Made by a program: the position numbers and the translations under genes
Notes under the pieces: model-generated
Told to the model about the DNA's origin: nothing
The model's input: the letters and a program-made list of their open reading frames with translations, nothing else
The model's database searches: none
NCBI GenBank assembly: GCA_003221005.1
Contig: QHTZ01000067.1
Coordinates: 11,417 to 75,416 of the forward strand
Direction of reading: 5' to 3'
DNA: 64,000 bases
From: Gemmatimonadota bacterium
GTDB lineage: Bacteria; Gemmatimonadota; Gemmatimonadetes; Gemmatimonadales; GWC2-71-9
Shown: positions 38,966 through 59,206 of the stretch, piece by piece
Layout of the letters: every line of letters begins with the position of its first letter
How positions within the stretch are numbered: position 1 is the first letter of the stretch

Positions 38966-39190
38966 CTACCGGGTGGGGCTGCACCTGGACGCCGCCGACT
39001 GAATTCCCGTGGCGGACGTGCAGGAATTGATCCGGTCGCTCGTGGCTGCGCCGTTTGCTTGCGCGTGAAGCGCGGGGGCACGGTACATCATCGGGTCCAT
39101 GGGGTCCATCGTAGTGCCGCCCGTACCGCTGCCGTGGCAGGCGGCCAGGAGCAGAGTCGCGAACCCCAACAGGGACACTAAGCGCATCAT
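38966..39190 (-). CDS. Small (74 aa) lipoprotein-like peptide with a Ser/Thr/Cys-rich C-terminus
   Basis: GGAGG RBS; hydrophobic leader ending LLLAAC; own near-consensus promoter upstream. Confidence 0.65.
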   Translation of the reverse strand: MMRLVSLLGFATLLLAACHGSGTGGTTMDPMDPMMYRAPALHAQANGAATSDRINSCTSATGIQSAASRCSPTR

Positions 39191-39235
39191 GGAACCTCCA
39201 GCGTGCGGACGAGGGCTCGTCATCGGCGACCGGGA

Positions 39236-39264
39236 ATTGTATGTGAGCATCGTCCCTTTTTCAA
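39236..39264 (-). promoter_or_regulatory. Sigma70-type promoter of the 74-aa peptide gene
   Basis: TTGAAA (39264-59), 17 bp, TACAAT (39241-36) on the minus strand. Confidence 0.7.
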
Positions 39265-39267
39265 CCA

Positions 39268-40653
39268 TTACACCCCGCCGTTGTTCCCCGCGAGGGCGAG
39301 CAACGCCTCGCGCGCCTTGCGCGCCTCCTCCCGCGCCGTGGCGCCGTTCGTCGCGTCGAGGCGGTGCGACTCGACTTCGTGGCGCAGCCAGCGATCGGCG
39401 TACCGGTACAGCTCGCGCGGATACCGGCCGCGCACGTCATAGTCACGATCGGTGGCCGCGGCCCAATCGCGGGTTGCAACGACGCGGTCGCCCAGCTCCC
39501 GGAAGTACGCCGTGTTCTTGATCGGGTACGCGACCGTGGTGAGGAAAACGTCGGGATCGGCGCGCCTCACGAGCGCGACCGTCTCCGCGATGTCGTCCAC
39601 GGTCTCGCCCTCGTAGCCCCACATCAGGAACATGCCGACCCGAAGCCCATGGCGCTTGGCGGCCCGGGTGGCGAAGAGCACCTGCTCCACGGTGACGCCG
39701 CGCTCCATTGCGTCCAGGATCCGCTGGCTCCCGCTCTCCGCGCCGATCCAGATGCGCCAGCAGCCCATCTCGGCCAGCGTGCGCAGAACGTCCTCCTGCA
39801 TCATGCGGTCGGCCCGGGAGATCGTTTCGAAGGGCACGCGCAGGCGCCGACGTTGCAGCTCGGCGGCATAGTCGTACAGCCAGCGATGGTGAATCGTGAA
39901 CACGTCATCCGCATACCAGACGATGTCCGGCCGGTAGCGCTGCACCAGGAACTCGAGCTCGTCGGCGACGCCGGCGACGCTGCGGCGCCGATGGGTGTAG
40001 CCGAAAACGGCGTGCGAGCACCAGCGGCAGCGATAGGGACAGCCGCGCGCCGTGATCAGGTTCACACTCCCGGTTCCGTGATGCGTGCGCCACACATCCA
40101 CATACCGCTGGACGTCGATCGCGTCGCGATCAGGCCACGGGAGGGCATCGAGGTCGCGGATCTGGGGGCGGTCCGGATTGATGACAACGGTGCCGCTCTC
40201 GTCCCGAAAGGCCGCGCCAGCCATGCCGTGCAGCCGGTGCGGCCCGCGCGCGTCGAGAGCGGGGAGCAGCTCGACCATGGTCTCCTCGCCCTCGCCGAAC
40301 ACCACGACGTCGGCACCGCGCGCCAAGTACTCTGCCGGGTAGTTGGCGGCCTCGGGGCCGCCGAGCACGACGGTCCAACCCTGTGACTTGGCCCGGGTGA
40401 CGAGGTCCAGCACCGACCCCCGCGTGATGAGATTCGTGTATACGCCGAGGACGCCGGCAGGCGCCGTTCCGAGCCGCGCGGCGAGCGCATCGCGGGTGGC
40501 AAAGGTGGTGTCGAACACCTCGACGCCCAGACCCGCGCGCCGCAGATACGCGGCGACGTAGAGCAGCCCGAGGGGCGGGTACGGCTTCATCACTTCCCGC
40601 TCCTTCGGGTCGTCGTCGAGGAAGTAGCCGTGGGTGAGGAGAATGTCGGTCAT
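39268..40653 (-). CDS. Cobalamin-dependent radical SAM protein (type A, copy 1)
   Basis: B12-binding N-domain (PYPPLGLLY, VLGGP, GEGE), RGCPYRCRWC motif, GAESG. Confidence 0.92.
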   Translation of the reverse strand: MTDILLTHGYFLDDDPKEREVMKPYPPLGLLYVAAYLRRAGLGVEVFDTTFATRDALAARLGTAPAGVLGVYTNLITRGSVLDLVTRAKSQGWTVVLGGPEAANYPAEYLARGADVVVFGEGEETMVELLPALDARGPHRLHGMAGAAFRDESGTVVINPDRPQIRDLDALPWPDRDAIDVQRYVDVWRTHHGTGSVNLITARGCPYRCRWCSHAVFGYTHRRRSVAGVADELEFLVQRYRPDIVWYADDVFTIHHRWLYDYAAELQRRRLRVPFETISRADRMMQEDVLRTLAEMGCWRIWIGAESGSQRILDAMERGVTVEQVLFATRAAKRHGLRVGMFLMWGYEGETVDDIAETVALVRRADPDVFLTTVAYPIKNTAYFRELGDRVVATRDWAAATDRDYDVRGRYPRELYRYADRWLRHEVESHRLDATNGATAREEARKAREALLALAGNNGGV

Positions 40654-40660
40654 GAACGGC

Positions 40661-41461
40661 TCAGCGCACAACCGTTTCCCAGACGTCGAAGCGGGACGGG
40701 GGGCGGCGGCCCAGCGCACGGGCGGCAAGCGGGCGAAGCTCGTACCAAAGGGGATAGCGCACGCGGTGACGGCGCCAAGAGAGGTGGAAGGGCGCCGACG
40801 CGGCGGCGAGCCGATCCGCTGTGAGATACTCGATCATCCGCAGCGCGAGCAGGTCGGCGGCGCGATCCCCCCATTCCCGGCGTGCGGTCTCACGTTTTTC
40901 AGCGACCATCCGTTCTCCATCTACGGCACGCCCGTAGAACGGGCTGTCAAGGATAACGAGCCGGCCTCCGGGAAGGGTCGCGCGGACCGCCTCCCCGATC
41001 GTCCCGTCGAGTGACGACGTGTAATGGATGGCGGCGTTAAAGACGACGAGATCGAACGCGCGCTTCACGGGAAGCGCGTCGAAGGACGCCGCCACGCGGG
41101 ACAACGCCGGCGCGAGGTGAGCCCCGTACGCCGCGCCCGCGCCAAGGCCATCCACCGCGTCGCGCCGCCAATCGAGCGCGACGCACCGATGGCCCTGCAG
41201 CGCGAGCCGGTAGCAGAGCCAGCCGTTCCCCGCTCCCAGGTCCAGGACGTTGAGCGGTTGCGGAGCCCGGGCCCGCCTCAGTGGCGCCACCACCGCGCGC
41301 AGCAAGCACTCGTAGCTCCGGGCCCGCACGGCCCACTGACGCGCCAGCGGTCCTGTGCGGAGATACGGGAGAGCGAGGAGCTCTGCGACTCCCCTTGAAC
41401 CGCGGCCCTCGGCCTCCCGGTGCTTGGCGTAAGCCGTGCGGAATCGCGCCGACGTCGTCAT
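40661..41461 (-). CDS. Class I SAM-dependent methyltransferase
   Basis: VLDLGAGNG, FDLVV and PGGRL motifs; TAACCT-7nt-ATG. Confidence 0.88.
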   Translation of the reverse strand: MTTSARFRTAYAKHREAEGRGSRGVAELLALPYLRTGPLARQWAVRARSYECLLRAVVAPLRRARAPQPLNVLDLGAGNGWLCYRLALQGHRCVALDWRRDAVDGLGAGAAYGAHLAPALSRVAASFDALPVKRAFDLVVFNAAIHYTSSLDGTIGEAVRATLPGGRLVILDSPFYGRAVDGERMVAEKRETARREWGDRAADLLALRMIEYLTADRLAAASAPFHLSWRRHRVRYPLWYELRPLAARALGRRPPSRFDVWETVVR

Positions 41462-41522
41462 CGGTCGAAGGTTAGCGGGTCGCTATTGGACCCGCCAGTT
41501 CCTGGGTAGATTACCCGGTTCG

Positions 41523-42308
41523 ATGTCATCCGCCGTAGCTTTCGAGACGCTCGCGCCTGAGTACGACGCGCGCTTCACCCAGAGCATGATCGGGCGATTG
41601 CTGCGCCGAGCCGTGTGGCACTGGCTCGACCGTGCCTTCGCGCCCGGTGAACGCGTCCTCGAGCTCAACTGCGGGACCGGCGAGGACGCGATGCACCTGG
41701 CCGCTCGGGGCGTGCGCATCCTCGCAACCGACGCTTCCCCCGCGATGCTCGATCTCGCACGGGCCAAGGTCAGCGATGCGGGGCTCGGCGGCCTTATCGA
41801 AATGCGGCTGACGGCGATCGACCGTCTCGCCGACTTGCGGGGGGAACTCCGGGAGGCGCTGGACGGCGCCTGGTCGAGCTTCGGCGGCCTCAACTGCGTG
41901 GCCGACGTGCCCGGCGCAGCTCGGGGTCTCGCCCCGCTGCTCAGGCCGGGGGCGCGCGTCGTGCTGTGTGTGATGGGGCCCCTGGTGCCATGGGAATGGG
42001 CGTGGTTCCTGATGCGGGGACAGGTGCGCAGCGCCCTGCGTCGGCTCACACGGGGCGGCGTGCCGTGGCGAGGGGTGACGGTCCGGTACCCGTCCATTCG
42101 CGCGCTGCGGCGGGCGTTCGCCCCGGGTTTCGTCGTCCGGCGTGTAGGCGGGCTCGGCGTGCTCCTCCCGCCCACCTACGCGGAAGCGTGGGCGCGCCGC
42201 CATCCGCACCTGATCGCACGCCTCGACCGGTGGGAGCGCCGCATCGAGCGCTGGCCCATCGTGCCTTGGCTCGGCGATCACTGCCTGCTGGAGCTGGAGC
42301 GGCGATGA
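41523..42308 (+). CDS. Class I SAM-dependent methyltransferase
   Basis: VLELNCGTGED and LLRPGA motifs. Confidence 0.88.
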   Translation: MSSAVAFETLAPEYDARFTQSMIGRLLRRAVWHWLDRAFAPGERVLELNCGTGEDAMHLAARGVRILATDASPAMLDLARAKVSDAGLGGLIEMRLTAIDRLADLRGELREALDGAWSSFGGLNCVADVPGAARGLAPLLRPGARVVLCVMGPLVPWEWAWFLMRGQVRSALRRLTRGGVPWRGVTVRYPSIRALRRAFAPGFVVRRVGGLGVLLPPTYAEAWARRHPHLIARLDRWERRIERWPIVPWLGDHCLLELERR

Positions 42309-43708
42309 AGCGGCGCGTCGTACTCTACAACCCAGTGGCCGCGTTCCACACCATGCCACTCGCGCTCGTCGCGATCGGCTCCCATCTCGACCGCGAGCGG
42401 TACGAGCCGCTGATCGTGGATGGGCGACTGGAGCCCGACGCAGTGGGTCGTGTGCTGCAAGCGGCTGAGGGTGCGTTGTGCGTCGGGGTCACGGTGCTCA
42501 CCGGGGAGCCGATTCGCGACGCGGTGAGGATCTCGCGCGCGGTCAAGGCACGATATCCTGATCTTCCCGTGGTCTGGGGCGGTTGGCACCCGTCGATGTT
42601 TGGCGTCCAATGCCTCGAGGAGCCAAGCGTCGACGTCACCGTGCAGGGCCAGGGCGAGGTCACGTTCCTCGAGATCGTGGATCGCCTGGCCCGCGGCGAT
42701 GCGCTCGACGGTTGTCTCGGTTGCTCCCATCGGGCGAACCACGGCGCCGTGACGCGAAACGCCTCCCGGCCGCTCGAGGACGTCAACGCCTTTCGCCCGC
42801 ACGATTACACGCTGATCGACATCGAGCGGTATTACGGGCTCAAGGGCAAGAAGCAGCTCGACTACATCGCCTCCCAGGGGTGCCGCTTCCGCTGCGCGTT
42901 CTGCGCCGATCCGTTCGTCTACCAGCGCCGCTGGGTCGGGCTCGACCCCGCCCGCGTGGGCTTCGAGATCGAGCAGTGGTGGTTCCGCTACCGCTTCACG
43001 GACGTCAACTTCCAGGACGAGACCTTCTTCACGTCGACGCCACGCGTGGTGGCAATCGCGGAGGAGTTCATCCGTCGGGGACTGCCCATCACTTGGGCCG
43101 CCACGATGCGCGCCGATCAATGTGTGCGCATGACCGATGACGCTTTCGAGGTGTGCAAACGCTCCGGACTGCGGCGGGTCCTCGTCGGCGTCGAATCTGG
43201 GTCACCAGAGATCCTCAAGCGCATCAAGAAGGACATCACGATCGAGCAGGTTCTGGAAACCGCGGCGCGCTGCCGGGCGCTGGGCCTCAGGGTGCAATTC
43301 CCGTTCATCGTTGGCTTCCCCGACGAGGACGAGGATAGCGTCTCGGCGACGCTCGCGCTTGCCAAGCGGCTGCGGGCCATGAGTCCCGACTTTGAGACGA
43401 TGATCTTCTACTTCAAGCCGTATCCCGGCTCCGCGCTGACCGAAGACGCGGTACGCCGCGGCTACGAACTGCCCCGCACGCTCGAGGCGTGGTCCACGTT
43501 CGACTACGTCGGTTCCGCGGGCCCCTGGGTCTCGCGTGAGAAGTACCGCCGCATGGAGCGATTCAAGTTCTACGAGCGGCTGGCCTGGGACCGGGTACCA
43601 GCGTGGAAGAAACCGCTCCAGAGGCTCGCGCGCTGGCGCTGCCGCCAGGATGCGTACGGGTTTCCCGTTGAGAAACTGGTACTAGGAGCGACCTCTGGAC
43701 TTCGCTGA
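42305..43708 (+). CDS. Cobalamin-dependent radical SAM protein (type B, copy 1)
   Basis: VVLYNP..MPLAL, VWGGWHPS, GQGE, QGCRFRCAFC and GVESG motifs. Confidence 0.92.
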   Translation: MKRRVVLYNPVAAFHTMPLALVAIGSHLDRERYEPLIVDGRLEPDAVGRVLQAAEGALCVGVTVLTGEPIRDAVRISRAVKARYPDLPVVWGGWHPSMFGVQCLEEPSVDVTVQGQGEVTFLEIVDRLARGDALDGCLGCSHRANHGAVTRNASRPLEDVNAFRPHDYTLIDIERYYGLKGKKQLDYIASQGCRFRCAFCADPFVYQRRWVGLDPARVGFEIEQWWFRYRFTDVNFQDETFFTSTPRVVAIAEEFIRRGLPITWAATMRADQCVRMTDDAFEVCKRSGLRRVLVGVESGSPEILKRIKKDITIEQVLETAARCRALGLRVQFPFIVGFPDEDEDSVSATLALAKRLRAMSPDFETMIFYFKPYPGSALTEDAVRRGYELPRTLEAWSTFDYVGSAGPWVSREKYRRMERFKFYERLAWDRVPAWKKPLQRLARWRCRQDAYGFPVEKLVLGATSGLR

Positions 43709-43844
43709 CCACCCCCTCCCGGGGCCCACCTGAATAGAGGGTGTTCGCGTGACTCCGCGACCTACTACCATCCGCCCACACCCACCTCCCGCCCGCAGTC
43801 TTGTCGAAATCCATTCCGCAGACGCGAGTTCAGGGTGGGCTGCC

Positions 43845-44221
43845 TTGAAGCCCGTGTAGTAGGTGAATGCGGAATACAAGAGCCCCAGGGAACTGGTAAC
43901 CACCCAGCGCCGAGCGCAATTCCCGATCCAACCAAAGCTTCTGTTTGATCCCCAGCGGCCCGGCCGCTGCGAATTGGGAGAATCCGCGCGGCGCGACACC
44001 GAGAAAGGTCTCTAGAATGCGATCGAACTTCAGGATCGGCTTTTTCGTACCGCCTCGCCCAGGCAGTACTCCACGGGGCGGGCGGGGAAGCCGGCGTCGC
44101 CCTTCTTACGGGTGAACCGCTGCTCCGACGCGGCGGCGACGATCTCGCCATCGGCCAGCAGCGCGGCGGCGCTGTCGTGATAGTACGCCGAAATCCCGAG
44201 GATTCGTACGGAGCGGGCCAA
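43845..44221 (-). pseudogene. Decayed NodU/CmcH-type O-carbamoyltransferase (N-terminal fragments)
   Basis: ILGISAYYHDSAAAL..RFTRKK..FP, then after frameshifts or deletions YEK/PILKFDRILETFLGVAPRGF and SLGLLYSAFTYYTGFK; rest of the gene absent. Confidence 0.85.
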
Positions 44222-44231
44222 CCGCAACCCC

Positions 44232-45452
44232 CTAATTGGACCGATGAAAGGGGGGGCGCTCGCGGAAGTGCGCAACCAGCACCCGCGCAAGCAACAGAGA
44301 GCCGTGATCGTTAAAGTGGACGTCGTCGTACAGCGCCGTCGTGTCAGCTGGAACCACTTTTGCCGCATCCACACAGTCGAGTCCTCGTTCGCGGCAGACC
44401 TCGAGCAGGGTCCCGTTGTACCGCGCCATCGCGCGGCTCAGCGCGCGGGTCGTGAAGTACCGCGCAGACTGACGATCCTTGCCCAACCACCCGAACCATA
44501 GCAGGCGCTCCTCCGCGTCGGACATACCGTCACGCCACGCGCTGGGCTGCGTGACGAACACGAGCCGCACGCGAGCTGCCGCCGCGAGGTCCGCCATCGC
44601 GTTGAGGTTCCGTCGGTACTCGATCAGGGGCCCCTCGAGCGGCGGGAGACTGTCGATCCACTCCTTGGTGTCGTGGCGACGGAGGCGTGCCCCCTGGAGG
44701 AAGCCCGGGCCGCCGCCCCGCCACGCGAGGCTCCGGTTCCGGGCCAACCTCACCCGTCGCGCGAGTTGCCACAGCACCGTCGCTTTGTACCAGGGAACGT
44801 TGAGAGTGCGAATCGCATCTTGAATTCCGCCGGGGACACGTGCGAACGCCCGTTTTAGCTGCTCGTTTTCCGCACCGGGCTCCGTCACGAGCGCAGGAAG
44901 GCGATATCCCCATCCTTGCTGCAGGGCGGACATCATGTCGTTTACCCCGACGAGGGAGACGACGACGTCGATATGGGGATACTGCGGCAGGAGGTACTTG
45001 AGGTGCAGCACATGATCCCGGGTATTCGCGCCGCTACGGCCGACGTTCCCGACCCACACCTGTCTCCCATCCGCCGTTCGGTCGAGATCCGTCTCGAGCA
45101 GGTGGGTCCAGACGTTGGTGTCATCCAGGACCCAACACTGCGTAGTGCTTCCCCCGACGGCGAGGATGCGGTATTCGGTGCGGTCGTCTCCGAAAGGCCG
45201 CCCCCGCACGCCGAAGCGATTGACTCGGACGTGCGACACACCTTCCACGCCGTGGATCACGTCGGGCGCCGCTGTCACCGTCCAGTCCGTGCCTGGCTCG
45301 AGCACGAAGTAGCCGCGGGAGGGCGGCAGCACCTCGCGCAGCACAAGCTCCGCCGCGGCTAGGGCCACGATGACCGACACGGCTGCCAGGGCGAGGTTGG
45401 AAAGAGCCCCAGCGATGCGAGCGCGCCAAGTCGCCGGGGAGCCTGGGAGCAC
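44232..45452 (-). CDS. Membrane-anchored SGNH/GDSL hydrolase-fold protein
   Basis: N-terminal TM; ILAVGGSTT (block I), GVND (block III) and DDVH (block V). Confidence 0.85.
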   Translation of the reverse strand: MLPGSPATWRARIAGALSNLALAAVSVIVALAAAELVLREVLPPSRGYFVLEPGTDWTVTAAPDVIHGVEGVSHVRVNRFGVRGRPFGDDRTEYRILAVGGSTTQCWVLDDTNVWTHLLETDLDRTADGRQVWVGNVGRSGANTRDHVLHLKYLLPQYPHIDVVVSLVGVNDMMSALQQGWGYRLPALVTEPGAENEQLKRAFARVPGGIQDAIRTLNVPWYKATVLWQLARRVRLARNRSLAWRGGGPGFLQGARLRRHDTKEWIDSLPPLEGPLIEYRRNLNAMADLAAAARVRLVFVTQPSAWRDGMSDAEERLLWFGWLGKDRQSARYFTTRALSRAMARYNGTLLEVCRERGLDCVDAAKVVPADTTALYDDVHFNDHGSLLLARVLVAHFRERPPFHRSN

Positions 45453-45478
45453 CGGAGCTCCGATCGTGCCGCCCAGTT

Positions 45479-47910: not shown

Positions 47911-47953
47911 CGCCCCGACACCCCCCGGCCACGCGTCCTCCCGTCGCGCCCGA

Positions 47954-47982
47954 TTGACCGCCGGATTGCAACGTGTCAGCGT
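47954..47982 (+). promoter_or_regulatory. Putative leaderless promoter of the GT4-GNAT-deacetylase-GT4 operon
   Basis: TTGACC (47954-59), 17 bp, CAGCGT (47977-82), 7 nt, ATG 47990. Confidence 0.5.
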
Positions 47983-47989
47983 TCTGCGC

Positions 47990-50157: not shown

Positions 50158-51031
50158 GCTCAAGCGGGCCGTCCTGGCGAGCGCGACGGCGGTTTGGTCC
50201 GGCGCCGCGCGGGCGGCCGGGCTGTGCGCGAGCGGACGGCCGGACCTCTGGCACTCCCCCGGCGGACAACGGGTGCTGGTGGTGGCACCCCACCCCGACG
50301 ACGAGATCGCGTGTGCCGGCACCCTGCTCCTCCACCGACGGGCCGGCGACGTGCTGCATGTGGCACACGCCACCGACGGTTGCGCCGCTCGGGCCGGAGG
50401 TCTCACACGGGGCGAGATGCACGACCGCCGGCGAGAAGAGGCTCGGGTGGCCGCTGACTTGCTCGGTGTCGCCGGGGCGCACTGGCTCGGCCTGCGCGAG
50501 GGCGACTGGGAGGAGGCGGCGCTCGTGCCCGCACTGCGCGACCTGGTGCGGCAGACGGCACCGCACGTCCTCTACGCCCCCTCGCGCGTCGACTTCCACC
50601 CCGAGCACGTCCGCGTCGCCAGGGGTCTCGCCGCCGCCCTGTCGGGCGACGGAGCGCTCGGGTGCACGATCCGCGTGTACGAGGTGCAGGTGCCGCTTAC
50701 GCCCGTGCTGGTCAACTTCGTGACGCCGATCGGCGCTGTGGTTGACGAGCTCATTGGGGCTATGGAGTGCTACCCGACCCAGCTCGGGAGCATCGAGCGG
50801 CTGCTGCGCATGAAGCGTTATGCCGCGTCGTTCTACGGGTTGTCGCAGCTGGCGGAGGAGTTCTGGCAGATGGATCCGGCGGCGTACCGGCGCGCGCACG
50901 CGGCGCGGGCCGCGCCCGAGGCAGACGGCGCATTCCGGGGCGTGCGGGCGCGACCGTTCACCGATCCGCTCTCATATCTCCGAGGGCTGGGCGCGAGACG
51001 GCAGCTGCGGGACGTGTCGCAGGGTCCGTGA
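50147..51031 (+). CDS. PIG-L/LmbE family N-deacetylase
   Basis: VVAPHPDDE, TDG, RREEA and HPEH motifs. Confidence 0.88.
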   Translation: MSFRLKRAVLASATAVWSGAARAAGLCASGRPDLWHSPGGQRVLVVAPHPDDEIACAGTLLLHRRAGDVLHVAHATDGCAARAGGLTRGEMHDRRREEARVAADLLGVAGAHWLGLREGDWEEAALVPALRDLVRQTAPHVLYAPSRVDFHPEHVRVARGLAAALSGDGALGCTIRVYEVQVPLTPVLVNFVTPIGAVVDELIGAMECYPTQLGSIERLLRMKRYAASFYGLSQLAEEFWQMDPAAYRRAHAARAAPEADGAFRGVRARPFTDPLSYLRGLGARRQLRDVSQGP

Positions 51032-52155
51032 AGCTCGGGCTCGTGGTCCCGGGTGGCGTGGCGCGCACGTCGGAGGACGGTCGGATCCCGTGCCTGCACT
51101 GGCTCATCGAGCGGCTCGCACGGCGCCATGAGGTCCACGTCTACTCCCTCCGTGGCGCGCCGCGGCCAGACCGCTATTCCTTCCTTGGGGCGACCGTTCA
51201 TCACGCCGGTGTGCGCCCGCTGAGTCTGCGGACGCTCGCGGCGATCGTGGCGGAGCACGGCCGGAGGCCGTTCGACCTGCTGCACGCGTTCTGGGTCACG
51301 CCGCCGGGAGTCATCGCCGCGTGGGCGGGCACGATGATTCGGCGCCCTGTGTTGCTCCACGTCGGGGGGAACGAGGTGGTCGCGCTGCCTGAGATTCGCT
51401 ACGGCGGCCTGTCCACGCGGCGTGGCCGGTTCTGGGTTCGCGTCGGCCTAGCGGGCGCGACCCGGATCACGGCCGCGAGCCAGCCGATGCTCGACGTCAT
51501 CCGGGCGCGGGGGCACACGGCCGAGCGGGTGCCGCTGGGCGTCGCGCTCGAGCGGTGGTGCGTCGCGGCGCCGCGGCCGCGCCGTGCGGGAGCGACGGCG
51601 CGCCTCGTCCACGTGGCGGACCTCAATCTGGTGAAGGATCAAACCACGCTGCTCGAAGCGGCGCGACGCCTCGCCGAGCGCGGCGTCGTCTTCCAGCTTG
51701 ACATCGCGGGCCGGGACACCCTTGGGGGCGCGGTCGCCAACCTCGCCCGGCAGTGTGGCGTTGGTGACCACGTACGCTTCCACGGGCATCTGCCGCACGA
51801 ACGTCTTCACGCGCTCGTGACGGAAGCCGATCTGTTGTGGCTGTCGTCACGACACGAGGCGGGGCCGCTCGTGGTTCTCGAGGCGGCGGTTGTGGGCGTC
51901 CCTACGGTGGGGACAGCGGTGGGCCACGTGGCGGAGTGGGCGCCCGAGGCTGCAGTAGCAGTTCCCGTGTGTGATCCTGAGGCACTCGCCCGGGAGACGG
52001 TGAGACTGTTAGGAGACGAGGCGCGACGGCTGTCGCTGGCGCGCGAAGCCCAGCGCCGGGCGCTCGCGTGCGATGCCGATTGGACCGCCTGCCGCTTCGA
52101 GTCGCTGTACGACAAGATCGTCAACGGAGCCAGACCGAACGGTCGCGATCGATGA
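51028..52155 (+). CDS. GT4 glycosyltransferase
   Basis: LVVPGGV, LNLVKDQ and HEAGPLVVLEAA motifs. Confidence 0.88.
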   Translation: MKLGLVVPGGVARTSEDGRIPCLHWLIERLARRHEVHVYSLRGAPRPDRYSFLGATVHHAGVRPLSLRTLAAIVAEHGRRPFDLLHAFWVTPPGVIAAWAGTMIRRPVLLHVGGNEVVALPEIRYGGLSTRRGRFWVRVGLAGATRITAASQPMLDVIRARGHTAERVPLGVALERWCVAAPRPRRAGATARLVHVADLNLVKDQTTLLEAARRLAERGVVFQLDIAGRDTLGGAVANLARQCGVGDHVRFHGHLPHERLHALVTEADLLWLSSRHEAGPLVVLEAAVVGVPTVGTAVGHVAEWAPEAAVAVPVCDPEALARETVRLLGDEARRLSLAREAQRRALACDADWTACRFESLYDKIVNGARPNGRDR

Positions 52156-52194
52156 GATCGCCCGTGCGCAGGATTTCGTCTCGGTAGCAATCAG

Positions 52195-52296
52195 TCACCA
52201 GCCCTGGAGATGCCGCTGCAGATCGAAGGAGGACGACGTCGTGCCCGTGCTGGGAGCGCCGGCGATGATGAAGTTCGGAAGCCGCGCGGCGGGCTC
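52195..52296 (-). pseudogene. N-terminal remnant of a sulfotransferase
   Basis: Reads EPAARLPNFIIAGAPSTGTTSSSFDLQRH, aligning with KLPTFFLAGVPKAGTSSLYAYLQQH of 56794..57786; no start codon, early stop. Confidence 0.65.
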
Positions 52297-53773
52297 AGAA
52301 CCCACTGGTCTCGGGTCGTTGATAGCGCACGAGTCGTTGCAGCGCTTGCAGTTCGAGCGGCAAACCGTAAAGGCGCGTCCGGTATCGCCACGCGCTCACC
52401 CCGCGGAGCACCCTGCGCCACATGCCCGTCAGATGCGCGTCGGTGGACGTCGGATAGTACGCATTGAGCACGCGCTCAAAATCGCGGACTCGCTGCCGCA
52501 GGGCGCGATTGAGCCAGGGCACCACGTCGCTGTACCGTTGCGCAAACCGTTGCCAAGGGTCGCTGATCCATTCGTCGAGCGTTTTGGGAAAATGAAAGCC
52601 CTCCGCCTGCGCTGCGTCGTACAAGTCGCCTGCGAGCGGTACTGGCGTGTAGTTGTACATGATGATCTCGCTGCGCGAATTGATCACCTTGACGCGGCGG
52701 ATGAACTCGATCGTGTGGCGCACGTCGCCTTCCGCGTCTGGCGGGTTCCCCAACACAAACGAAAATTCTGGCACGATGTCGTAGTCCTTCATCTTACCGG
52801 CTAACTCGAGCGTCTTGTCGGGCGACATCGTGCCGCCCTTGTCCATTCGCTGTAACGTCTCGAGCGATCCAGATTCCGCGCCCAGAAAAACCATCTTCAG
52901 ACCCGAATCGCGCATCAGGCGCCACGTCTTCTCGGAGTACTTCAGCAGCGTGTCAATGCGCGCCTCGCCCCACCACGCCAGCCCGAGCGGCAGGATGCGT
53001 TCGGCGAATTCCGCAGTGCGCGCCTCGTGGGTGAAGAAATTGTTGTCGTAGAATTCGATCGCGTTGATGCGCCATTCGTTCACGTACATTTGCGCAATGT
53101 CGGCCACGCGCGCCGCGGCCTGAGGCAGCCAGCGCCCGTTCACCATGTTCACCACGGCGCAAAAATTACAAAAGAAGGGACAGCCGTAGCTCGAATGATG
53201 TGGCAGAGTGCGCGACCCGAGGAAGGTCGGTCGGATGTAGCGCTGAATGTCAATCCGATGATAGGGGAACGGCGGGAGACGGTCGGGGTGCGGAATTGGC
53301 GCGAGTCCATTCTGCACTACCTGGCCGCTCGCATCCCGATATGCCAACCCTGCGATGCCACCATGATCGGAATTCTTCCCCAATGCATCCAGCAAATTCA
53401 GGAACACCGTCTCGCCGTGGCCGCGCACCGTGAAGTCGACCGCGGGGTCCTGGAGAATCACGTCTGAGTGCTGTGTCGGGAAATAGCCGCCCCACACGAT
53501 CTGCAGATGCGGAAATTCCCTCTTCAAGGCGCGCGAATGCGGCACCGCCCACGCCAGCTGCGGTCCGGGCATCACCGTGATCGCCAACAGATTCGCGCCC
53601 GCCGTGATTCGCGCTCGCAGCGTCGTCAGCGCGTCGCCTTCGCAATTCCCGTCCACCAGGGTGTACTCGTAGTTGCCTTCGAGCAGCGCGCCCAACGCGA
53701 GCAGCGACATAGGCAAGATCCGCTTACCCGAGCCGTTGCTCACGGGATTGTAGAACACAATGTTCGGCCTCAT
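52295..53773 (-). CDS. Cobalamin-dependent radical SAM protein (type B, copy 2)
   Basis: IVFYNP..LPMSLL, VWGGYFPT, GHGE, YGCPFFCNFC and GAESG motifs. Confidence 0.92.
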   Translation of the reverse strand: MRPNIVFYNPVSNGSGKRILPMSLLALGALLEGNYEYTLVDGNCEGDALTTLRARITAGANLLAITVMPGPQLAWAVPHSRALKREFPHLQIVWGGYFPTQHSDVILQDPAVDFTVRGHGETVFLNLLDALGKNSDHGGIAGLAYRDASGQVVQNGLAPIPHPDRLPPFPYHRIDIQRYIRPTFLGSRTLPHHSSYGCPFFCNFCAVVNMVNGRWLPQAAARVADIAQMYVNEWRINAIEFYDNNFFTHEARTAEFAERILPLGLAWWGEARIDTLLKYSEKTWRLMRDSGLKMVFLGAESGSLETLQRMDKGGTMSPDKTLELAGKMKDYDIVPEFSFVLGNPPDAEGDVRHTIEFIRRVKVINSRSEIIMYNYTPVPLAGDLYDAAQAEGFHFPKTLDEWISDPWQRFAQRYSDVVPWLNRALRQRVRDFERVLNAYYPTSTDAHLTGMWRRVLRGVSAWRYRTRLYGLPLELQALQRLVRYQRPETSGF

Positions 53774-54465
53774 GGAGCCACGCGAATCTCGTACACGGTC
53801 AATTTCTCGTTGATCAAGTCGCGTTCGCGTACGACACGCACGCTCAGATGGGTTGCCGACCACAGCGCCGTGGCGATGTCGCCATCACTCGAGAGCACGA
53901 CGAGAGCGCGCCCCCCGGGCGTCAGGTGTGCGGGGACCTCACGCAGAAAGCGATCGAAGACATCGAGGCTCCGCCATGCGGAGTCGGAGAGGTTCCGCGG
54001 CCGGCCGCGAAAGTACGGGGGGTTGAAGAGGATCACGTCAAAGCGCTCACCGTGCACCGGCTCGAACAAATCGCCCACGCGGATTTCAATCCGCCGTTCG
54101 AGGCCGTGCGCCAGGGCGTTGAGCTGGGCACAGCGTGCCGCTTGCGGGTTAATGTCCGTCGCAATCACTTGCGCGGCGTAGCGGGCGGCAAAAATCGCAC
54201 CCAGGCCAGAGCCAGTGCCGACGTCGAGCGCGCGCGCGTCGGGTGGACAGATGTTCACATTGAGCGTCTGTGCGAGAAAGGCGCCCGTCCGCAGCTGCGC
54301 GCCGTTGAAAACGCCAGGGAGCACGACGATCCGCACCCCGCTGACGGTGTCGACGCGCAGCTGTGTATCCTCCCGCAACCGCAGCCGTCGCCACAGGCGC
54401 CAAGACCAGCGAGATACCGCGCGGGCCCAGCCCTGGCTGCCCGCGCCCCATTGCCCCAGGTTCAT
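53770..54465 (-). CDS. HemK/PrmC-like N-methyltransferase
   Basis: LDVGTGSG and the FNPPY motif typical of amide/amine N-methyltransferases. Confidence 0.87.
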   Translation of the reverse strand: MNLGQWGAGSQGWARAVSRWSWRLWRRLRLREDTQLRVDTVSGVRIVVLPGVFNGAQLRTGAFLAQTLNVNICPPDARALDVGTGSGLGAIFAARYAAQVIATDINPQAARCAQLNALAHGLERRIEIRVGDLFEPVHGERFDVILFNPPYFRGRPRNLSDSAWRSLDVFDRFLREVPAHLTPGGRALVVLSSDGDIATALWSATHLSVRVVRERDLINEKLTVYEIRVAP

Positions 54466-54484
54466 GCGCGACCTCCGGGGCTGT

Positions 54485-55558
54485 TCATAGCGCCGTCCGC
54501 ACTCCGACCTGCAGTGTGCAGACGCAGCGGCGACAAGTCGCGTCTGCTGCAACATTCAATCCGCGCCGAAACGCGACCATCTCGTTCGCCAAGATCTCGC
54601 GCAAGCGCCTTTCGCGAATGTTGCCAACCACCGGGTGGAAATAGCACGGACGTACCGCGCCGTCGGCTTCGACCACGGCGCTTGCCCACGGCGCGTTGCA
54701 CCGTACCGAGGGAAAGTCAGCAAGCCCGCGCTGTGCGGCGTAGTACTTGGGCAACCGCCGCAACTTCTCCGGTGCCTCGGCAACAAACCGGGACTCGAAA
54801 TCCCTGGCGTGTGAGGCAATGGTGTCCTCAACCACCCGCGCGAATTCCTCGATCTCGTCCTTCTTCAGGAGCAGTCCTCGCATCGAGGACGCTGTCCGCA
54901 AGGTCCTCTCCGCTGCGGCGCCACCCGCCGTAGACGTTCGTCCGAACGCTTCGCTCGTCACGTCGGCGGCAAGAAACGAGATCCCATCGAGTCCCATGGC
55001 GTGCGCCTTGTCGATCAACTGGGACAGCTCCCCAAAGTTGTGACGATGGATGGTGCTGCGCGCCAGCACGGGCATCAGCGGCGACAAGGTCTTCAAGCGT
55101 TTCACGCCGCTCTCGATTACCCTGAGCCCGTCCACCCCGCGAATCTGGTGATACAGCGAGGCGGTGTGCCCGTCCAGGGAAATTGTCACCCGCTCAAAGT
55201 GCTCGACGACCGCCGCCGCATCACGTTCGAGAAACAAGCCGCTCGTCAGCAGATGCAATCTCACGCCGCGGGCTCGGAACAGCGCAGCAATCTGGTACAC
55301 GTCGCGCCGCAGCGTCGGCTCCCCGCCCGAGAACGTCACCAGCCGCGTCCTGAGGGCTGGCAGCTCGTCGGTCAACCCGCGAATCTCGTCGAGCGTCAAA
55401 TCGCCGGCACCATCCGCCTTCCACCAGTCGCACGACACGCAGCGGGAGTTGCAGCGCGCGGTCGGAAAAAAAATGAGGATCGGCAGGGCAAACGTGCGAT
55501 CGGTCGCGCGATTGAGCTGCACGAGCAAATTGCTCGTGACCTGCGGGAGCGTTAACAT
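54485..55558 (-). CDS. Radical SAM protein with SPASM/Twitch domain
   Basis: CNSRCVSC and FSGGEP; C-terminal CNAPW..GAVRPC..VGN..CRRCVC. Confidence 0.9.
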   Translation of the reverse strand: MLTLPQVTSNLLVQLNRATDRTFALPILIFFPTARCNSRCVSCDWWKADGAGDLTLDEIRGLTDELPALRTRLVTFSGGEPTLRRDVYQIAALFRARGVRLHLLTSGLFLERDAAAVVEHFERVTISLDGHTASLYHQIRGVDGLRVIESGVKRLKTLSPLMPVLARSTIHRHNFGELSQLIDKAHAMGLDGISFLAADVTSEAFGRTSTAGGAAAERTLRTASSMRGLLLKKDEIEEFARVVEDTIASHARDFESRFVAEAPEKLRRLPKYYAAQRGLADFPSVRCNAPWASAVVEADGAVRPCYFHPVVGNIRERRLREILANEMVAFRRGLNVAADATCRRCVCTLQVGVRTAL

Positions 55559-55764
55559 GGCTTTGGAGAGAGTCTATAGTAGCGTGCCTACGGAATGTCC
55601 ACACGTGGAGTGGCTCACCCTCGAGCAGCCGCACCCCAGCCCGGCGTCGCTTCCTGAGACGGCTTGCCTTTCATGAAGTCATTGCCGTTCTGGGCCTCGG
55701 GGCGCCAGTGCCGTCGGCACGTATGCGAACAGCATGAAGCCGCTGAGACAGGTATCGTTCCTCC

Positions 55765-56739
55765 GTGAACCCAGGCACGCTGATATCGATCATCATTCCC
55801 ACGTACAACCGGGCCAGGCTCCTGCGTGAAGCGGTGGAGTCGGTCCTCGCTCAAACATATCACGACTGGGAGCTGCTCGTGATTGACGACGGCTCTACCG
55901 ACGGCTCCCGCACGTACCTCGGGACGCTCGCCCACCGGCGCCTTCGCCCGGTCCTGTTGGAGCACTCCGGCAACGCAGCACGGGTTCGCAATGCGGGACT
56001 TCGCGCAGCCCGTGGCTCATACATCGCGTTCCTGGATTCGGACGATCTCTGGCACCCGGAGAAACTCGCACTTCAGATCGAGGACATGCACGCGCATCCT
56101 GAATGTGGCTGGAGCTATACTGGTCTGGCGCTTGTGGACGAGCGGGGGCAAGAGATCCCGCCGGTTGGCGGCCGCCGTGTGCCAGCTCAGCGGGGCTGGA
56201 TTCTCGAGGCCTTGATCAAGGGACAGGCTATCGCCGCCACCTCAGCAGTGCTCGTGCGGCGACAACTGCTCCAGAGGGTGGGCGACTTCGATGAATCCCT
56301 GCCCGTTTGTGAGGAGATCGATCTCTTCTTCAGATTCGCCGAGGCGAGCCCGGCGACCGTCGTGTGCCGGCCGTTGGTGTCGTGCCGTCGCCACCCGGGA
56401 AATGGGCCCTGGCCCCCCCTCGACGTCCTCGAGTGCAGGAATCGGGTTTACGACGGCCTGCTGGCCCGCACGTCGTCGCGGCGGCTGCGGCGCATCTGTC
56501 GACGGAGCAAGCTACGATTCACCGTGGCCCATCTGGGCAGGCTGCGAAGGACCGGGCTGTACGCCGAAACTCGACAGGCGCTTTCAATGTCGTTCCCGTA
56601 TGCAGGATTGCACCCGGCGTGGTGGGTCGCGTGCCTCCAGACATGGCTGCGGCGTTCGCCGGGAGGTGGGCCAGCGTCCCTCCGGCCCCCCCAAGGCCGT
56701 GCTGATCCGCCGCCAGTGGCTCGCGGTTCTTCTTCCTGA
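55765..56739 (+). CDS. GT2 glycosyltransferase
   Basis: SIIIPTYN, IDDGSTD, RNAG and FLDSDD motifs. Confidence 0.92.
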   Translation: MNPGTLISIIIPTYNRARLLREAVESVLAQTYHDWELLVIDDGSTDGSRTYLGTLAHRRLRPVLLEHSGNAARVRNAGLRAARGSYIAFLDSDDLWHPEKLALQIEDMHAHPECGWSYTGLALVDERGQEIPPVGGRRVPAQRGWILEALIKGQAIAATSAVLVRRQLLQRVGDFDESLPVCEEIDLFFRFAEASPATVVCRPLVSCRRHPGNGPWPPLDVLECRNRVYDGLLARTSSRRLRRICRRSKLRFTVAHLGRLRRTGLYAETRQALSMSFPYAGLHPAWWVACLQTWLRRSPGGGPASLRPPQGRADPPPVARGSSS

Positions 56740-56793
56740 CAGTCAGTCATTGCGCACGCCGCGATGACGCTCAAGACGAGCCGGACCGTCCAG

Positions 56794-57786
56794 TCAGCGG
56801 AGCCACGCCGAGAGGTCGCGGCCAATGAAGTCGGCTGTGCCCAAGATCTGTTCGCGGTAGTAGTCGATGACCATGGCGCGATCGGCGGGATCCATGGTCA
56901 CGGCGGTCCGCGGTCCGCGGTACAGGCGCACGAGGAGTCGGCGGGCCGGTTCAGGGAGCCGAGTCGTCAGGGCTACCTCGCCAAGCAACCGTCGGCGCAA
57001 GGCGTGCAGGCGCGGGAACCGCGGTACGACGGGCACATTGTGCCGGCGCGATAGGTCCACTGGCACGTCGGGATCGATCTCCAGGAACTCAAAGATGTCC
57101 CGCAACACCGACCGCGCGTCCGCGCAAAAATCCTCGTATAAGTAGACGCGGAGGTGCTTTCGGGGGAACAAGGCCGCGTAGCGCTGCAGGTGGGTCGCGT
57201 ATCGCCCCACGAGCACCCTCAGACCCTTCCAGGGATCCGGTCGGTCCGCTGCCTCGAGAAACTGAGCGCGGAATGTCTGGAGGCGGGGACGACGCCACAG
57301 GTTCGCCGCATACTCTGAGAACAGTCGCTGAGCCGGGTCTCGCAGCACGAAAATTAGGCGCGCGTCCGGCACGTGCGCGTGAATCGCCTCAGCGGCGCTG
57401 GGTAACCAGACATGATCGACGCTCGCGTCACCGATGGCGGTCTCCTCGCGCACACGCTGGAAGAGCTCCAGATAGTCCTCCCACTTTGCGACGACCCACC
57501 TTCTCCCAGATACGTACTCCCACTTCGCGACTGCCCACCGTCTCTCAGGCTCCACCAGGCCCTTCCAATGCGGGTGCAAGTCTTCGAGCTCCTGCATTGA
57601 CTGGCGCACGACGCGATCACCGTTCGCGTCAGACAGGATGTCGGCCGCTCCGAAGAACGTCGGCTCCTTTGGCCAGCACATGTAAACCTGGGGATGTTGT
57701 TGCAGGTAGGCGTACAGCGAGGAGGTGCCGGCTTTGGGCACGCCCGCGAGAAAGAACGTCGGGAGCTTGCCCGTACCAGGTGTCAT
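56794..57786 (-). CDS. PAPS-dependent sulfotransferase
   Basis: 5'-PSB loop GVPKAGTSSL and 3'-PB LRDPAQRLFS. Confidence 0.9.
   Translation of the reverse strand: MTPGTGKLPTFFLAGVPKAGTSSLYAYLQQHPQVYMCWPKEPTFFGAADILSDANGDRVVRQSMQELEDLHPHWKGLVEPERRWAVAKWEYVSGRRWVVAKWEDYLELFQRVREETAIGDASVDHVWLPSAAEAIHAHVPDARLIFVLRDPAQRLFSEYAANLWRRPRLQTFRAQFLEAADRPDPWKGLRVLVGRYATHLQRYAALFPRKHLRVYLYEDFCADARSVLRDIFEFLEIDPDVPVDLSRRHNVPVVPRFPRLHALRRRLLGEVALTTRLPEPARRLLVRLYRGPRTAVTMDPADRAMVIDYYREQILGTADFIGRDLSAWLR
57478..57544. repeat. 39-bp-period in-frame duplication within the sulfotransferase
   Basis: ctcccactttgcgacgacccaccttctc / ctcccacttcgcgactgcccaccgtctc; protein RRWAVAKWE..RRWVVAKWE. Confidence 0.8.
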
Positions 57787-57794
57787 CAGATGGA

Positions 57795-57824
57795 ACGGTA
57801 CCGCCGGCGGACGCGCACCGTCAA
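57795..57824 (-). promoter_or_regulatory. Putative promoter of the sulfotransferase
   Basis: TTGACG, 18 bp, TACCGT, 8 nt, ATG 57786. Confidence 0.5.
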
Positions 57825-57956
57825 TTGGAAGCCCTTCGGGGGCTTCAAGTTCCGGATCGACCTCCCGTCACCGAGCCTGCTCGCGACGCTGTGATCATGA
57901 GCCACGTGGACCTCGTCATTCGAGCTGCGGACCTGCGGACAGTAGTGCAGGCGTCC

Positions 57957-58051
57957 CAGAGGGCGCACCGCCCCGTCCAGACCGGGATCGCGCACCTTCA
58001 CCGATAGACCTTGGAGAGTCGCTCCGCGACGATCACGGCGGCGTTCGCCAT
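57957..58051 (-). pseudogene. 5' remnant of an ABC transporter ATPase gene
   Basis: [17 protein letters not shown], then by a 1-nt shift [15 protein letters not shown], resembling ABC-2 ATPase N-termini; no Walker A follows. Confidence 0.5.
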
Positions 58052-58111
58052 GGGCGAACCGTGCATCGGCCCACGCGTCCCCGGGAACCGCGGGGCGGCG
58101 GGAGGCAGCCG

Positions 58112-59093: not shown

Positions 59094-59179
59094 CTGGCTG
59101 GCTCCGATCGGGTTGAGTCGCTTGGCGACGCTCTCAATCTCGCCACGCGAACCCGCGGAGTGAAGCACCAGGACCGTCG

Positions 59180-59206
59180 GTGAGAGAACTGTCATCCTTC
59201 ACTCAT
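59180..59206. promoter_or_regulatory. Putative response-regulator binding site upstream of msrAB
   Basis: GTGAGAG-AA-CTGTCAT-CCTT-CACTCAT; same architecture as 62654..62680. Confidence 0.55.

Follow-up and report, generated by a model that had tools for sequence, protein, structure and literature searches.

Within a 64,000-nucleotide (nt) stretch of contig QHTZ01000067.1 from a Gemmatimonadota bacterium (assembly GCA_003221005.1; the whole stretch is hereafter the window), positions 38966-57786 hold an island of biosynthetic genes. It encodes four radical S-adenosylmethionine (SAM) enzymes of the cobalamin (B12)-dependent type (B12-rSAMs; rSAM1 to rSAM4), a further radical SAM protein with a SPASM domain, three methyltransferases (MT1 to MT3), an HprK/PEPCK-fold kinase, two GT4 glycosyltransferases (GT4a and GT4b), a GT2 glycosyltransferase, a tandem GNAT N-acyltransferase, a PIG-L de-N-acetylase, an SGNH hydrolase, a sulfotransferase and the remains of a carbamoyltransferase (Table 1). 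The enzyme families are known ones, but their combination, traced here in two phyla, is new, and comparison of related loci indicates that the island is one conserved and probably horizontally mobile biosynthetic unit.

Gemmatimonadota and Acidobacteriota are abundant soil phyla that are chemically almost unexplored. B12-dependent radical SAM enzymes carry out some of biology's hardest alkylations, and few have known substrates; here, four orthogroups of them are tied to a kinase and sugar enzymes in uncultured soil bacteria of both phyla. The product, once solved, would assign functions to these orthogroups and would show whether the module of HprK-like kinase, NTP_transf_5 protein and GT4, known so far only from peptide natural products, serves non-peptide acceptors. 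It might also bring to light, in the two phyla, methylated glycolipids, glycans or phosphoglycopeptides that form a class of their own.

Gene content and boundaries of the island

The window has a GC content of ~69%, and its reading frames were picked by third-position GC and afterwards by domain matches. Family calls on its proteins come from Pfam and NCBIfam and were judged against the family cut-offs; among the related loci discussed below, Pfam scanning covered the open reading frames (ORFs) of all but L034, L044, L063-L082 and most of L075. A preliminary description of the window, made from the letters alone, had listed the same genes, and the domain matches place all of them at or near where it had put them. 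Its HprK-like kinase is supported by the predicted fold of the protein, but forms a separate minus-strand gene rather than part of a 714-amino-acid (aa) plus-strand ORF (46961-49105). The first ~340 residues of that ORF are Arg/Ser/Ala-rich and lie antisense to the kinase gene; the kinase-GT4a fusion was rejected as an artefact, and GT4a begins at 47990. Candidate starts for the kinase are TTG 47805, TTG 47835 and GTG 47784, and rSAM3 likely starts at GTG 46846, overlapping the kinase stop. At four junctions (GT4a-GNAT, PIG-L-GT4b, kinase-rSAM3 and MT2-rSAM2), a start codon and a stop codon share a 4-nt overlap.

The block from rSAM4 to the sulfotransferase (52295-57786) has 63.6% GC, whereas the remainder of the island and the window as a whole both have 69.0%, suggesting that the block was acquired later. 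The flanks are housekeeping in character, and the first 36 kb of the window include genes for citrate synthase, transhydrogenase, acyl-CoA dehydrogenase and Ada. The 100-aa ORF at the left edge has no Pfam or NCBIfam match and no homologue in the congeners G003, G004 and G005; its membership of the island is doubtful. As the preliminary description had noted, the scans of 38966-57960 matched no polyketide synthase or nonribosomal peptide synthetase, terpene cyclase, transporter, peptidase or PqqD domain. The genome (2.79 Mb, 94% complete) has six B12-rSAM-like matches, and four of these fall in this 19 kb, more than expected by chance.

The carbamoyltransferase had been called a remnant; compared with the 607-aa orthologue that is intact in the congener G003, it retains just residues 4-118 and 174-193, in shifting frames. 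After the intact gene, a 52-aa hydrophobic protein is conserved in G003 (L016+L017, 21217-21375) and in L065 (12670-12828). It is similar to small membrane proteins encoded alongside carbamoyltransferases, and it is absent from the window, where the carbamoyltransferase has decayed.

Table 1. Genes of the island and its flanks, with positions in the window.
Feature	Position	Strand	Basis and remarks
Amidase (flank)	36808-38463	-	
DUF3568 protein (flank)	38521-38931	+	
100-aa ORF	38966-39268	-	Lipoprotein-like signal LLLAAC; ATG overlaps rSAM1 stop
B12-rSAM1	39268-40728	-	Radical_SAM 78.6 bits, B12-binding 64.4 bits; CPYRCRWC
MT1, class I SAM methyltransferase	40661-41461	-	Methyltransf_11/23/31/25
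MT2, class I SAM methyltransferase	41436-42308	+	Methyltransf_25/12/11
B12-rSAM2	42305-43708	+	Radical_SAM 70.7 bits, B12-binding 42.8 bits; CRFRCAFC; ATG overlaps MT2 stop
Decayed carbamoyltransferase (NodU/CmcH type)	~43845-44204	-	Carbam_trans_N profile positions 1-53 only
SGNH/GDSL hydrolase	44232-45452	-	Lipase_GDSL_2 48.9 bits; apparent N-terminal hydrophobic anchor
B12-rSAM3	45479-46846 (ORF to 46951)	-	Radical_SAM 69.8 bits; CPYACNWC
HprK/PEPCK-fold P-loop kinase	46843 to ~47805	-	GAGKST P-loop; fold
GT4a, GT4 glycosyltransferase	47990-49105	+	Glycos_transf_1 66.2 bits; start ATG 47990
Tandem GNAT N-acyltransferase	49102-50157	+	Acetyltransf_9; ATG overlaps GT4a stop
PIG-L/LmbE-type de-N-acetylase	50147-51031	+	PIG-L 74 bits; PHPDDE motif
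GT4b, GT4 glycosyltransferase	51028-52155	+	Glycos_transf_1 85.8 bits; GTG overlaps PIG-L stop
B12-rSAM4	52295-53863	-	B12-binding 35.9 bits, Radical_SAM 34.7 bits; CPFFCNFC
MT3, HemK2/MTQ2-type methyltransferase	53770-54555	-	MTS 70.4 bits; LFNPPYF (NPPY motif)
rSAM-SPASM protein	54485-55558	-	Radical_SAM 59.1 bits, SPASM 44.0 bits; rSAM domain from residue 32
GT2 glycosyltransferase	55765-56739	+	Glycos_transf_2 108.8 bits
Sulfotransferase	56794-57786	-	Sulfotransfer_3 73.6 bits
MsrA-MsrB, then two-component pair (flank)	57786-59195 onward	-	

Conservation and history of the island

Scanning species genomes with an alignment of the kinase returned 34 loci, 26 of them strong (E <= 3e-47) and eight with weak P-loop matches only; the window's proteins were placed in the relatives' loci by tblastn. 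The universal B12-rSAM of the family is rSAM3: an orthologue of it adjoins the kinase in 25 of the 26 strong loci, and the other one (L038) stops at a contig edge 30 nt past the kinase match. A metagenome scan gave another 12 strong loci; rSAM3 is next to the kinase in 11 of these, and the remaining one ends at the kinase. These kinase-rSAM3 loci come from Gemmatimonadota and Acidobacteriota. MT2 is present in 20/26 genome loci, the remaining six reaching a contig edge before its expected place, while MT1 is found in 16 and a GT4b-like gene in 14. Across genomes, the genes that the preliminary description had grouped into one pathway co-occur as a unit and are not chance neighbours, and in relatives they also keep their order. 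The arrangement rSAM1/MT1/MT2/rSAM2 ... rSAM3-kinase, then GT4a-GNAT-PIG-L-GT4b, is preserved in four congeneric or confamilial genomes. Three congeners carry the island, with 52-85% protein identity in the core genes. One of them (G005) has it in the same chromosomal slot, between the amidase and the genes for MsrAB, a response regulator and a histidine kinase. The architecture is shared by G078, a genome from a different genus.

GT4a and GT4b lie beside the kinase in 10/10 Gemmatimonadota loci examined, and the GNAT gene is present as well in all but L065. Loci of the Holophagales type (L030, L034 and L044) unite kinase, rSAM3, MT2, SPASM, rSAM2, MT3, rSAM4, GT4a and GT4b, with rSAM1 additionally in L044, and the Thermoanaerobaculia-type locus consists of kinase, rSAM3, MT2, MT1 and an rSAM4-like gene. 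The metagenome scan also returned eight distant kinase loci (26-32% identity, 48% over one short piece). All eight have a GT4b-like gene no more than 1.5 kb from the kinase, and three have an NTP_transf_5-like gene. A quick maximum-likelihood tree (IQ-TREE) of 61 B12-rSAM segments contains four supported orthogroups, represented by six rows for rSAM1, 11 for rSAM2, 25 for rSAM3 and 19 for rSAM4 together with rSAM4-like proteins, in which rSAM1 pairs with rSAM3 and rSAM2 with rSAM4 as sisters. An old module of kinase and GT4, with or without NTP_transf_5, likely gained one rSAM per clade plus methyltransferases, and duplications came later.

Around this core the gene set varies. Relatives have between one and three SGNH paralogues, together with one or two sulfotransferases and a carbamoyltransferase that is intact, and their loci further contain GT2, GT9, PMT_2 (GT-C), a second SPASM rSAM, acyl-AMP ligase, flavin reductase, cupin and amidohydrolase genes, and in L030 an AmiA-like amidase follows GT4a. 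NTP_transf_5 was detected by Pfam in L024, L026 and L030 and by similarity in L067, L075, L076 and L080; it was not found in the window's own genome, which is 94% complete. The family is also rare. A hidden Markov model (HMM) of the kinase family, applied at E <= 1e-30 to sampled genomes, found it in 4/301 Gemmatimonadota genomes (2/127 genera) and in 2/401 Acidobacteriota genomes, both already among the known carriers. Near-identical DNA occurs in 20 soil metagenome runs from 16 studies, the best of which may include the window's source sample, and none of the listed runs carrying such DNA is an RNA run. Rarity, a variable accessory set and the lower-GC block all point to an accessory rather than a core role for the island.

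Nearest relatives of the island enzymes

The family profile TIGR04352 (HprK-related kinase A) matches the island kinase weakly (32.5 bits vs a cut-off of 200, E 4.6e-8, profile positions 95-169 only), and a FomB match is weaker still (16 bits vs 400, E 0.0045). The predicted fold, which matches both HprK/P and PEPCK, supports the call. In an AlphaFold2 (AF2) model with a predicted local distance difference test score (pLDDT) of 83, residues 165-355 align with HprK/P (1ko7; Z 13.0, root-mean-square deviation (rmsd) 3.1 A, 133 residues) and the whole protein aligns with ATP-PEPCK (1ii2; Z 13.7, rmsd 6.9 A, 293 residues), and Foldseek concurs on PEPCK. On this model, the kinase belongs to the HprK/PEPCK-fold P-loop superfamily. 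Its GAGKST P-loop is invariant in 15 aligned kinase sequences, as are many Arg and Lys residues. Hpr_kinase_C is annotated in 12-25% of its Atlas neighbours and ScmC in 10% of one cluster; precomputed Pfam assignments give ScmC in 3/120 kinase relatives, among the matches listed.

The window's genome (G000) has a second HprK-like kinase, 50% identical, on contig C101 (L058, 5160-6082), where it is cut off by the contig end. Beside it lie genes for a phosphoesterase, a YdjM-like membrane protein, a Wza-type Poly_export/SLBB protein and an RmlA-like fragment. Contig C43 (L061) opens inside an rSAM4-like gene, followed by genes for an amidohydrolase, a weak MatE/MOP-like protein, a methyltransferase and a GT4. 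C43 may continue C101, and the two may form a second, Thermoanaerobaculia-type copy of the core.

All four B12-rSAMs pass the Pfam Radical_SAM cut-off, and they and the SPASM protein contain CxxxCxxC. The B12-binding domain (PF02310) scores above cut-off in three of the four. For rSAM3 it reaches 25.1 bits vs 32.1, but we count this protein as a probable B12-rSAM because it belongs to the sister orthogroup of rSAM1 and aligns lengthwise with B12-rSAM NCBIfam families. Its top-scoring NCBIfam family, below cut-off, is named methyl-coenzyme M reductase glutamine C-methyltransferase. A sequence search of the PDB was used to find the nearest solved relatives of rSAM3, PIG-L, GT4b and the sulfotransferase. 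For rSAM3 these are 9ccb (E 3.4e-21), identified in a review as the protein glutamine C-methyltransferase QCMT (PMC12931638), and then AprD4 (E 6.9e-15).

In the rSAM-SPASM protein, the SPASM domain (PF13186) scores 44 bits vs a cut-off of 21.5. Five of its eight Cys residues lie outside CxxxCxxC, which fits one or two auxiliary clusters alike; its NirJ and ScmE matches are far below cut-off, and it has no N-terminal RiPP recognition element (RRE; RiPP, a peptide made by ribosomes and modified after translation). MT3 has the sole NCBIfam equivalog score above cut-off among the island proteins (TIGR00537, 88 vs 87 bits). That no characterised pathway matches the island, as had been proposed, remains the case: the other equivalog scores are far below cut-off, and literature searches, with supplements outside their scope, found no published description of this gene combination.

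The sugar-handling enzymes have more uniform affinities. GT4a has NCBIfam matches to MshA and EpsE, all below cut-off. The PDB sequences nearest to GT4b are the sucrose-phosphate-synthase-like 6kih, BshA and MshA; those nearest to PIG-L are TT1542, a diacetylchitobiose deacetylase and an LmbE-related protein; and the sulfotransferase is closest to 3rnl and then to heparan sulfate glucosamine 3-O-sulfotransferases (E 1.2e-11). The GNAT sequence found no match in the PDB. An AF2 model of this protein (pLDDT 87) matches peptide N-myristoyltransferase (NMT, Z 23.8) and Eis (Z 23.1/22.9, 21% identity), followed by glucosamine N-acetyltransferases (Z 20.5 and 19.9) and MshD (Z 16.9); Foldseek returned NMT only. 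All of these nearest solved relatives of the island's sugar enzymes act on N-acetylglucosamine (GlcNAc) or glucosamine (GlcN). The SGNH protein looks membrane-anchored at its N-terminus.

Candidate products of the island

We favour, with a probability of roughly 40%, a phosphate-bearing, GlcN-containing, N-acylated, multiply methylated and non-ribosomal glycoconjugate destined for the envelope or export, most plausibly a glycolipid or a decorated oligosaccharide. A glycoconjugate is preferred because the kinase and GT4 form the deepest conserved pairing and because the relatives of the sugar enzymes act on GlcNAc or GlcN. The anchored-looking SGNH protein, the pool of GT9, PMT_2 and acyl-AMP ligase genes and the second kinase beside a Wza-type exporter suggest the envelope or export as the destination, while the lack of a conserved small ORF, of peptide machinery and of lasso genes near the loci favours a non-peptide product.

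The pathway predicted from gene content would start with the oldest module. The kinase would phosphorylate a hydroxyl group and the BshA/MshA/sucrose-phosphate-synthase-like GT4, in some relatives together with NTP_transf_5, would glycosylate an acceptor. GlcNAc would be added by GT4a or GT4b, its N-acetyl group removed by PIG-L and the amine re-acylated by the Eis/NMT-like GNAT; the GlcNAc transfer, deacetylation and re-acylation logic of the preliminary description thus fits the BshA/MshA, LmbE/diacetylchitobiose deacetylase and Eis/glucosamine N-acetyltransferase relatives. The pairs MT1-rSAM1, MT2-rSAM2 and MT3-rSAM4, and rSAM3 paired with the kinase, could then methylate O or N atoms and attach methyl or longer alkyl groups to unactivated carbons, with the SPASM protein performing a further radical step. 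Finishing would vary by lineage and could involve the sulfotransferase, the carbamoyltransferase (dead here), the SGNH protein and GT2, and elsewhere GT9, PMT_2 and acyl-AMP ligase.

Nod factors and aminoglycosides are tailored in related ways, by deacetylases, N-acylation or N-methylation, carbamoylation and sulfation, and B12-rSAMs of the GenK/GenD1/AprD4 type act on aminosugars. The island resembles these systems in the sequence of GlcN de-N-acetylation, re-acylation and then carbamoylation, sulfation and methylation, and in having AprD4 as the second-best solved relative of rSAM3. It differs from them in having no NodC-type chitin synthase, NodA, aminocyclitol genes or aminotransferases, and the identities are remote. 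In hopanoid synthesis, HpnI, HpnK and HpnJ have side-chain roles. Their use of a glycosyltransferase, a deacetylase and a B12-type rSAM on a lipid-bound hexosamine, along with archaeal calditol synthase, offers another likeness. The hopanoid acceptor was rejected: squalene-hopene cyclase (PF13243) was matched in none of five island genomes, compared with 2/14 reference genomes for the control, and rSAM2's best NCBIfam match, HpnJ, scores 121 bits vs a cut-off of 577. Among the small molecule, lipid head group and surface glycan that had been put forward as products, it is thus the hopanoid version of the head group that is disfavoured. A phosphonate or phosphinate pathway of the PhpK, Fom3 or FomB type was likewise rejected, as PEP mutase (TIGR02320) exceeded its cut-off in none of the five genomes.

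Several observations weigh against our preferred glycoconjugate. To our knowledge, the HprK-branch enzymes characterised so far all phosphorylate a serine of a protein or peptide. Among solved proteins, rSAM3 is closest to a protein methyltransferase, QCMT, and MT3, with its NPPY motif, reaches the cut-off of the HemK2/MTQ2 protein methyltransferases. A PP2C protein phosphatase gene directly follows rSAM3 in G078. No glycosyltransferase lies within the core operon of the Thermoanaerobaculia version, and in 15 loci of this type a secreted CarboxypepD_reg-repeat protein of ~1500 aa is divergently transcribed from the kinase (L036 5457-9986 and 14 other loci, 48-87% identity). The window's island has no flippase, initiating phosphoglycosyltransferase, polymerase, exporter or aglycone-making enzyme, and genes of Wzx/Wzy or ABC-type polysaccharide systems (initiating phosphoglycosyltransferase, flippase or ABC transporter, polymerase) are lacking from 38966-57960; Wza-like and weak MatE-like genes are confined to C101 and C43, close to the genome's other kinase copy. 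Finally, HprK-like kinases, NTP_transf_5 and sulfotransferases appear as RiPP tailoring genes in PMC8498205 and PMC13381572.

This last group of observations leads to the strongest alternative, which we regard as possible though less probable than the glycoconjugate: a ribosomal peptide or secreted protein, encoded elsewhere or missed, whose Ser is phosphorylated and given a phosphate-linked glycan by NTP_transf_5 (where present) and the GT4s, with the B12-rSAM, SPASM and NPPY enzymes modifying the peptide or the glycan. Such a product would be a Gram-negative, methylation-rich counterpart of the phosphoglycosylated lasso peptides and the linear polyphosphorylated peptides (LPP). According to PMC8498205, lasso precursors receive a phosphate on their C-terminal Ser from HPr-kinase homologues, a nucleotidyltransferase puts hexoses on that phosphate, and such clusters include a sulfotransferase gene. 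The core of the LPP cluster, according to PMC13381572, is an HprK-like kinase with an NTP transferase in glycosyltransferase-rich loci. The likeness of the island to the lasso (paeninodin, pseudomycoidin) and LPP systems thus extends to the kinase, the sulfotransferase, the surrounding glycosyltransferases and, in the relatives' loci named above, NTP_transf_5, and would include chemistry in which a hydroxyl is first phosphorylated and the phosphate then receives a sugar (PMC8498205, PMC13381572). Together with rSAM3 near QCMT and the NPPY motif of MT3, these tailoring families mean that the scaffold-free, non-peptidic product of the preliminary description is not borne out. Further points in favour of a peptide or protein substrate are the top structural match of the GNAT, a peptide N-myristoyltransferase tied with Eis, the PP2C gene, and the ScmC assignments among kinase relatives. 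The SynChlorMet cassette consists of ScmC, ScmD, ScmE and ScmF, and the SPASM protein aligns full-length with ScmE; it scores only 66 bits vs a cut-off of 400, however, and the window has no PqqD-like ScmD and no second SPASM gene.

The island differs from the lasso and LPP clusters in having no precursor, no RRE/PqqD, neither a B2 nor a signal-peptidase-like protease, and no cyclase or MsbA-type pump, in the failure to find NTP_transf_5 in the window genome, and in its Gram-negative hosts from soil phyla. It also has two to four B12-rSAMs, which go unmentioned in the available text of either source (PMC8498205, PMC13381572); that of PMC13381572 names neither radical SAM enzymes nor Gemmatimonadota or Acidobacteriota. 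Domain scans of the island matched no signal-peptidase-like protease, discrete RRE or MsbA-like pump. An RRE within the kinase itself was rejected on an absence only: its N-domain is beta-rich in the AF2 model, with no winged helix among the structural matches listed.

Searches for a precursor in cis gave no conserved candidate in any lineage examined, and this possibility was rejected. Clustering 1381 small ORFs from nine Gemmatimonadota stretches yielded only alternative-frame artefacts within real genes, and small ORFs with high third-position GC in three Holophagales-type loci comprised only a lipoprotein-like and a 123-aa protein, both outside the operon. The intergenic ORFs of the window contained no convincing precursor, and a scan of 16 loci with the pattern [YW]xxPx[LVIFA], modelled on the N-terminal YxxPxVL-type motif of LPP precursors, found no plausible intergenic ORF. 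For proteusin-type RiPPs, where several B12-rSAM C-methyltransferases modify one precursor and an NHLP/Nif11-type gene lies beside the enzymes, the observation is again that no conserved small ORF was seen, no precursor HMM having been run. The glyco-block relatives, moreover, act on free sugars or small acceptors.

Lasso tailoring in trans was also rejected as a general explanation because no lasso genes lie near the family's loci and B2 was not found in some hosts. Lasso C, B2 and B1/PqqD were absent from the domain scans of the window. When the genome's own lasso C, B2 and B1 were compared by tblastn with 65 loci and the window, only L055 and L051 matched, and these carry merely weak P-loop matches to the kinase. 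B2 had no match in two of five Acidobacteriota island genomes and only sub-cut-off matches in two more. The window genome's lasso genes are on contigs C110 (L057) and C113 (L056), and the congeners' B2 genes are on other contigs as well.

As separate observations, C110 carries an Asn-synthetase-like cyclase, a B2 transglutaminase-like protease and a PqqD/B1 gene, and C113 carries B2 and B1; no precursor ORF was seen on either, and both end in the same sequence, probably a repeat that broke the assembly. In L055 (a metagenome-assembled genome (MAG) of Gemmatimonas), a distant P-loop relative of the kinase stands beside lasso C and B1, and in L051 (an Acidimicrobiaceae MAG) another stands beside a PqqD-like gene, which is the classical RiPP context of the kinase superfamily.

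Thermoanaerobaculia loci encode two conserved Gly/Trp/Phe-rich proteins of 93-98 aa, p93 and p98 (L036 17325-17606 and 19510-19806; also in 8 to 10 other loci, with 54-88% identity from locus to locus). They are located ~2 kb downstream of the core, and after each comes a GT-A-like protein that matched no family. In an alignment by eye, for which chance is a possible explanation, the first 19 residues of p93 show 5/10 fixed positions of the LPP leader motif in register. A peptide or protein substrate gains some support from these proteins and from the ~1500-aa repeat protein nearby. As a universal partner, p93 was rejected, having no match in five Gemmatimonadota/Holophagales-type genomes in a search in which no positive control matched.

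Unlikely, but worth setting out, is a new kind of protein or peptide modification in Gram-negative soil bacteria. The Ser of a peptide encoded in trans, or of a large secreted repeat protein, would be phosphorylated by the kinase and extended to a phosphate-linked GlcN glycan, and up to four B12-rSAMs would C-alkylate the glycan or the backbone. This poly-C-methylated phosphoglycan version of LPP or pseudomycoidin chemistry would need no RRE, leader peptidase or dedicated pump.

Less likely again is a cytoplasmic small glycoside, such as a mycothiol- or bacillithiol-like thiol, a compatible solute or a cofactor, in which the kinase makes a phosphorylated acceptor for glycosylation by a GT4, after which PIG-L and the GNAT would alter the amine and the methylases would adjust the result. 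Like mycothiol, bacillithiol and glycosylphosphatidylinositol synthesis, the island has a BshA/MshA-type GT4, a PHPDDE PIG-L and a tandem GNAT with the MshD/Eis fold, all encoded in a single operon with translational coupling, and the phosphorylated acceptor has analogues in inositol-1-phosphate (MshA) and fructose-6-phosphate (sucrose-phosphate synthase). The affinities of GT4b and of the LmbE/BshB-related PIG-L agree with this reading, as do the modelled alignment of the kinase over both domains with PEPCK, a small-molecule kinase, the absence of an exporter from the island, and the MsrA-MsrB gene that flanks it in the window and in G005. These points are offset by scores far below cut-off (MshA 53 vs 462 bits, BshA 53 vs 274, BshB1 49 vs 182) and by the absence of a cysteine ligase gene from the island, whose second GT4, kinase and radical SAM set have no counterpart in the three pathways. 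Outside the genus MsrAB is no longer a neighbour, so rare and patchy a distribution is not what a core thiol or cofactor would show, and hypervariable sulfo-, carbamoyl- and acyl-tailoring with an anchored-looking SGNH protein is a better fit to the surface or secreted molecule that we prefer.

It is very improbable that the island is a mosaic of at least two unrelated neighbouring operons, one for methylation and the kinase and one for a glycan: the Thermoanaerobaculia core does stand without the GT4a-GNAT-PIG-L-GT4b block, GC drops across 52295-57786 and accessory genes vary between loci, but the kinase keeps its GT4b-like neighbour even in the most distant loci, both GT4 genes accompany it throughout the Gemmatimonadota loci examined, and the Holophagales-type loci combine the components of both.

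Two further features of the window lie outside the island. The flanking MsrA-MsrB fusion (469 aa) has a start that abuts the sulfotransferase stop; its SelR domain ends near residue 336, leaving ~130 residues beyond it without a match. Some 30 kb away from the island, at 6512-9133, the window encodes an 873-aa protein with a second PIG-L domain and an NPCBM-associated domain.

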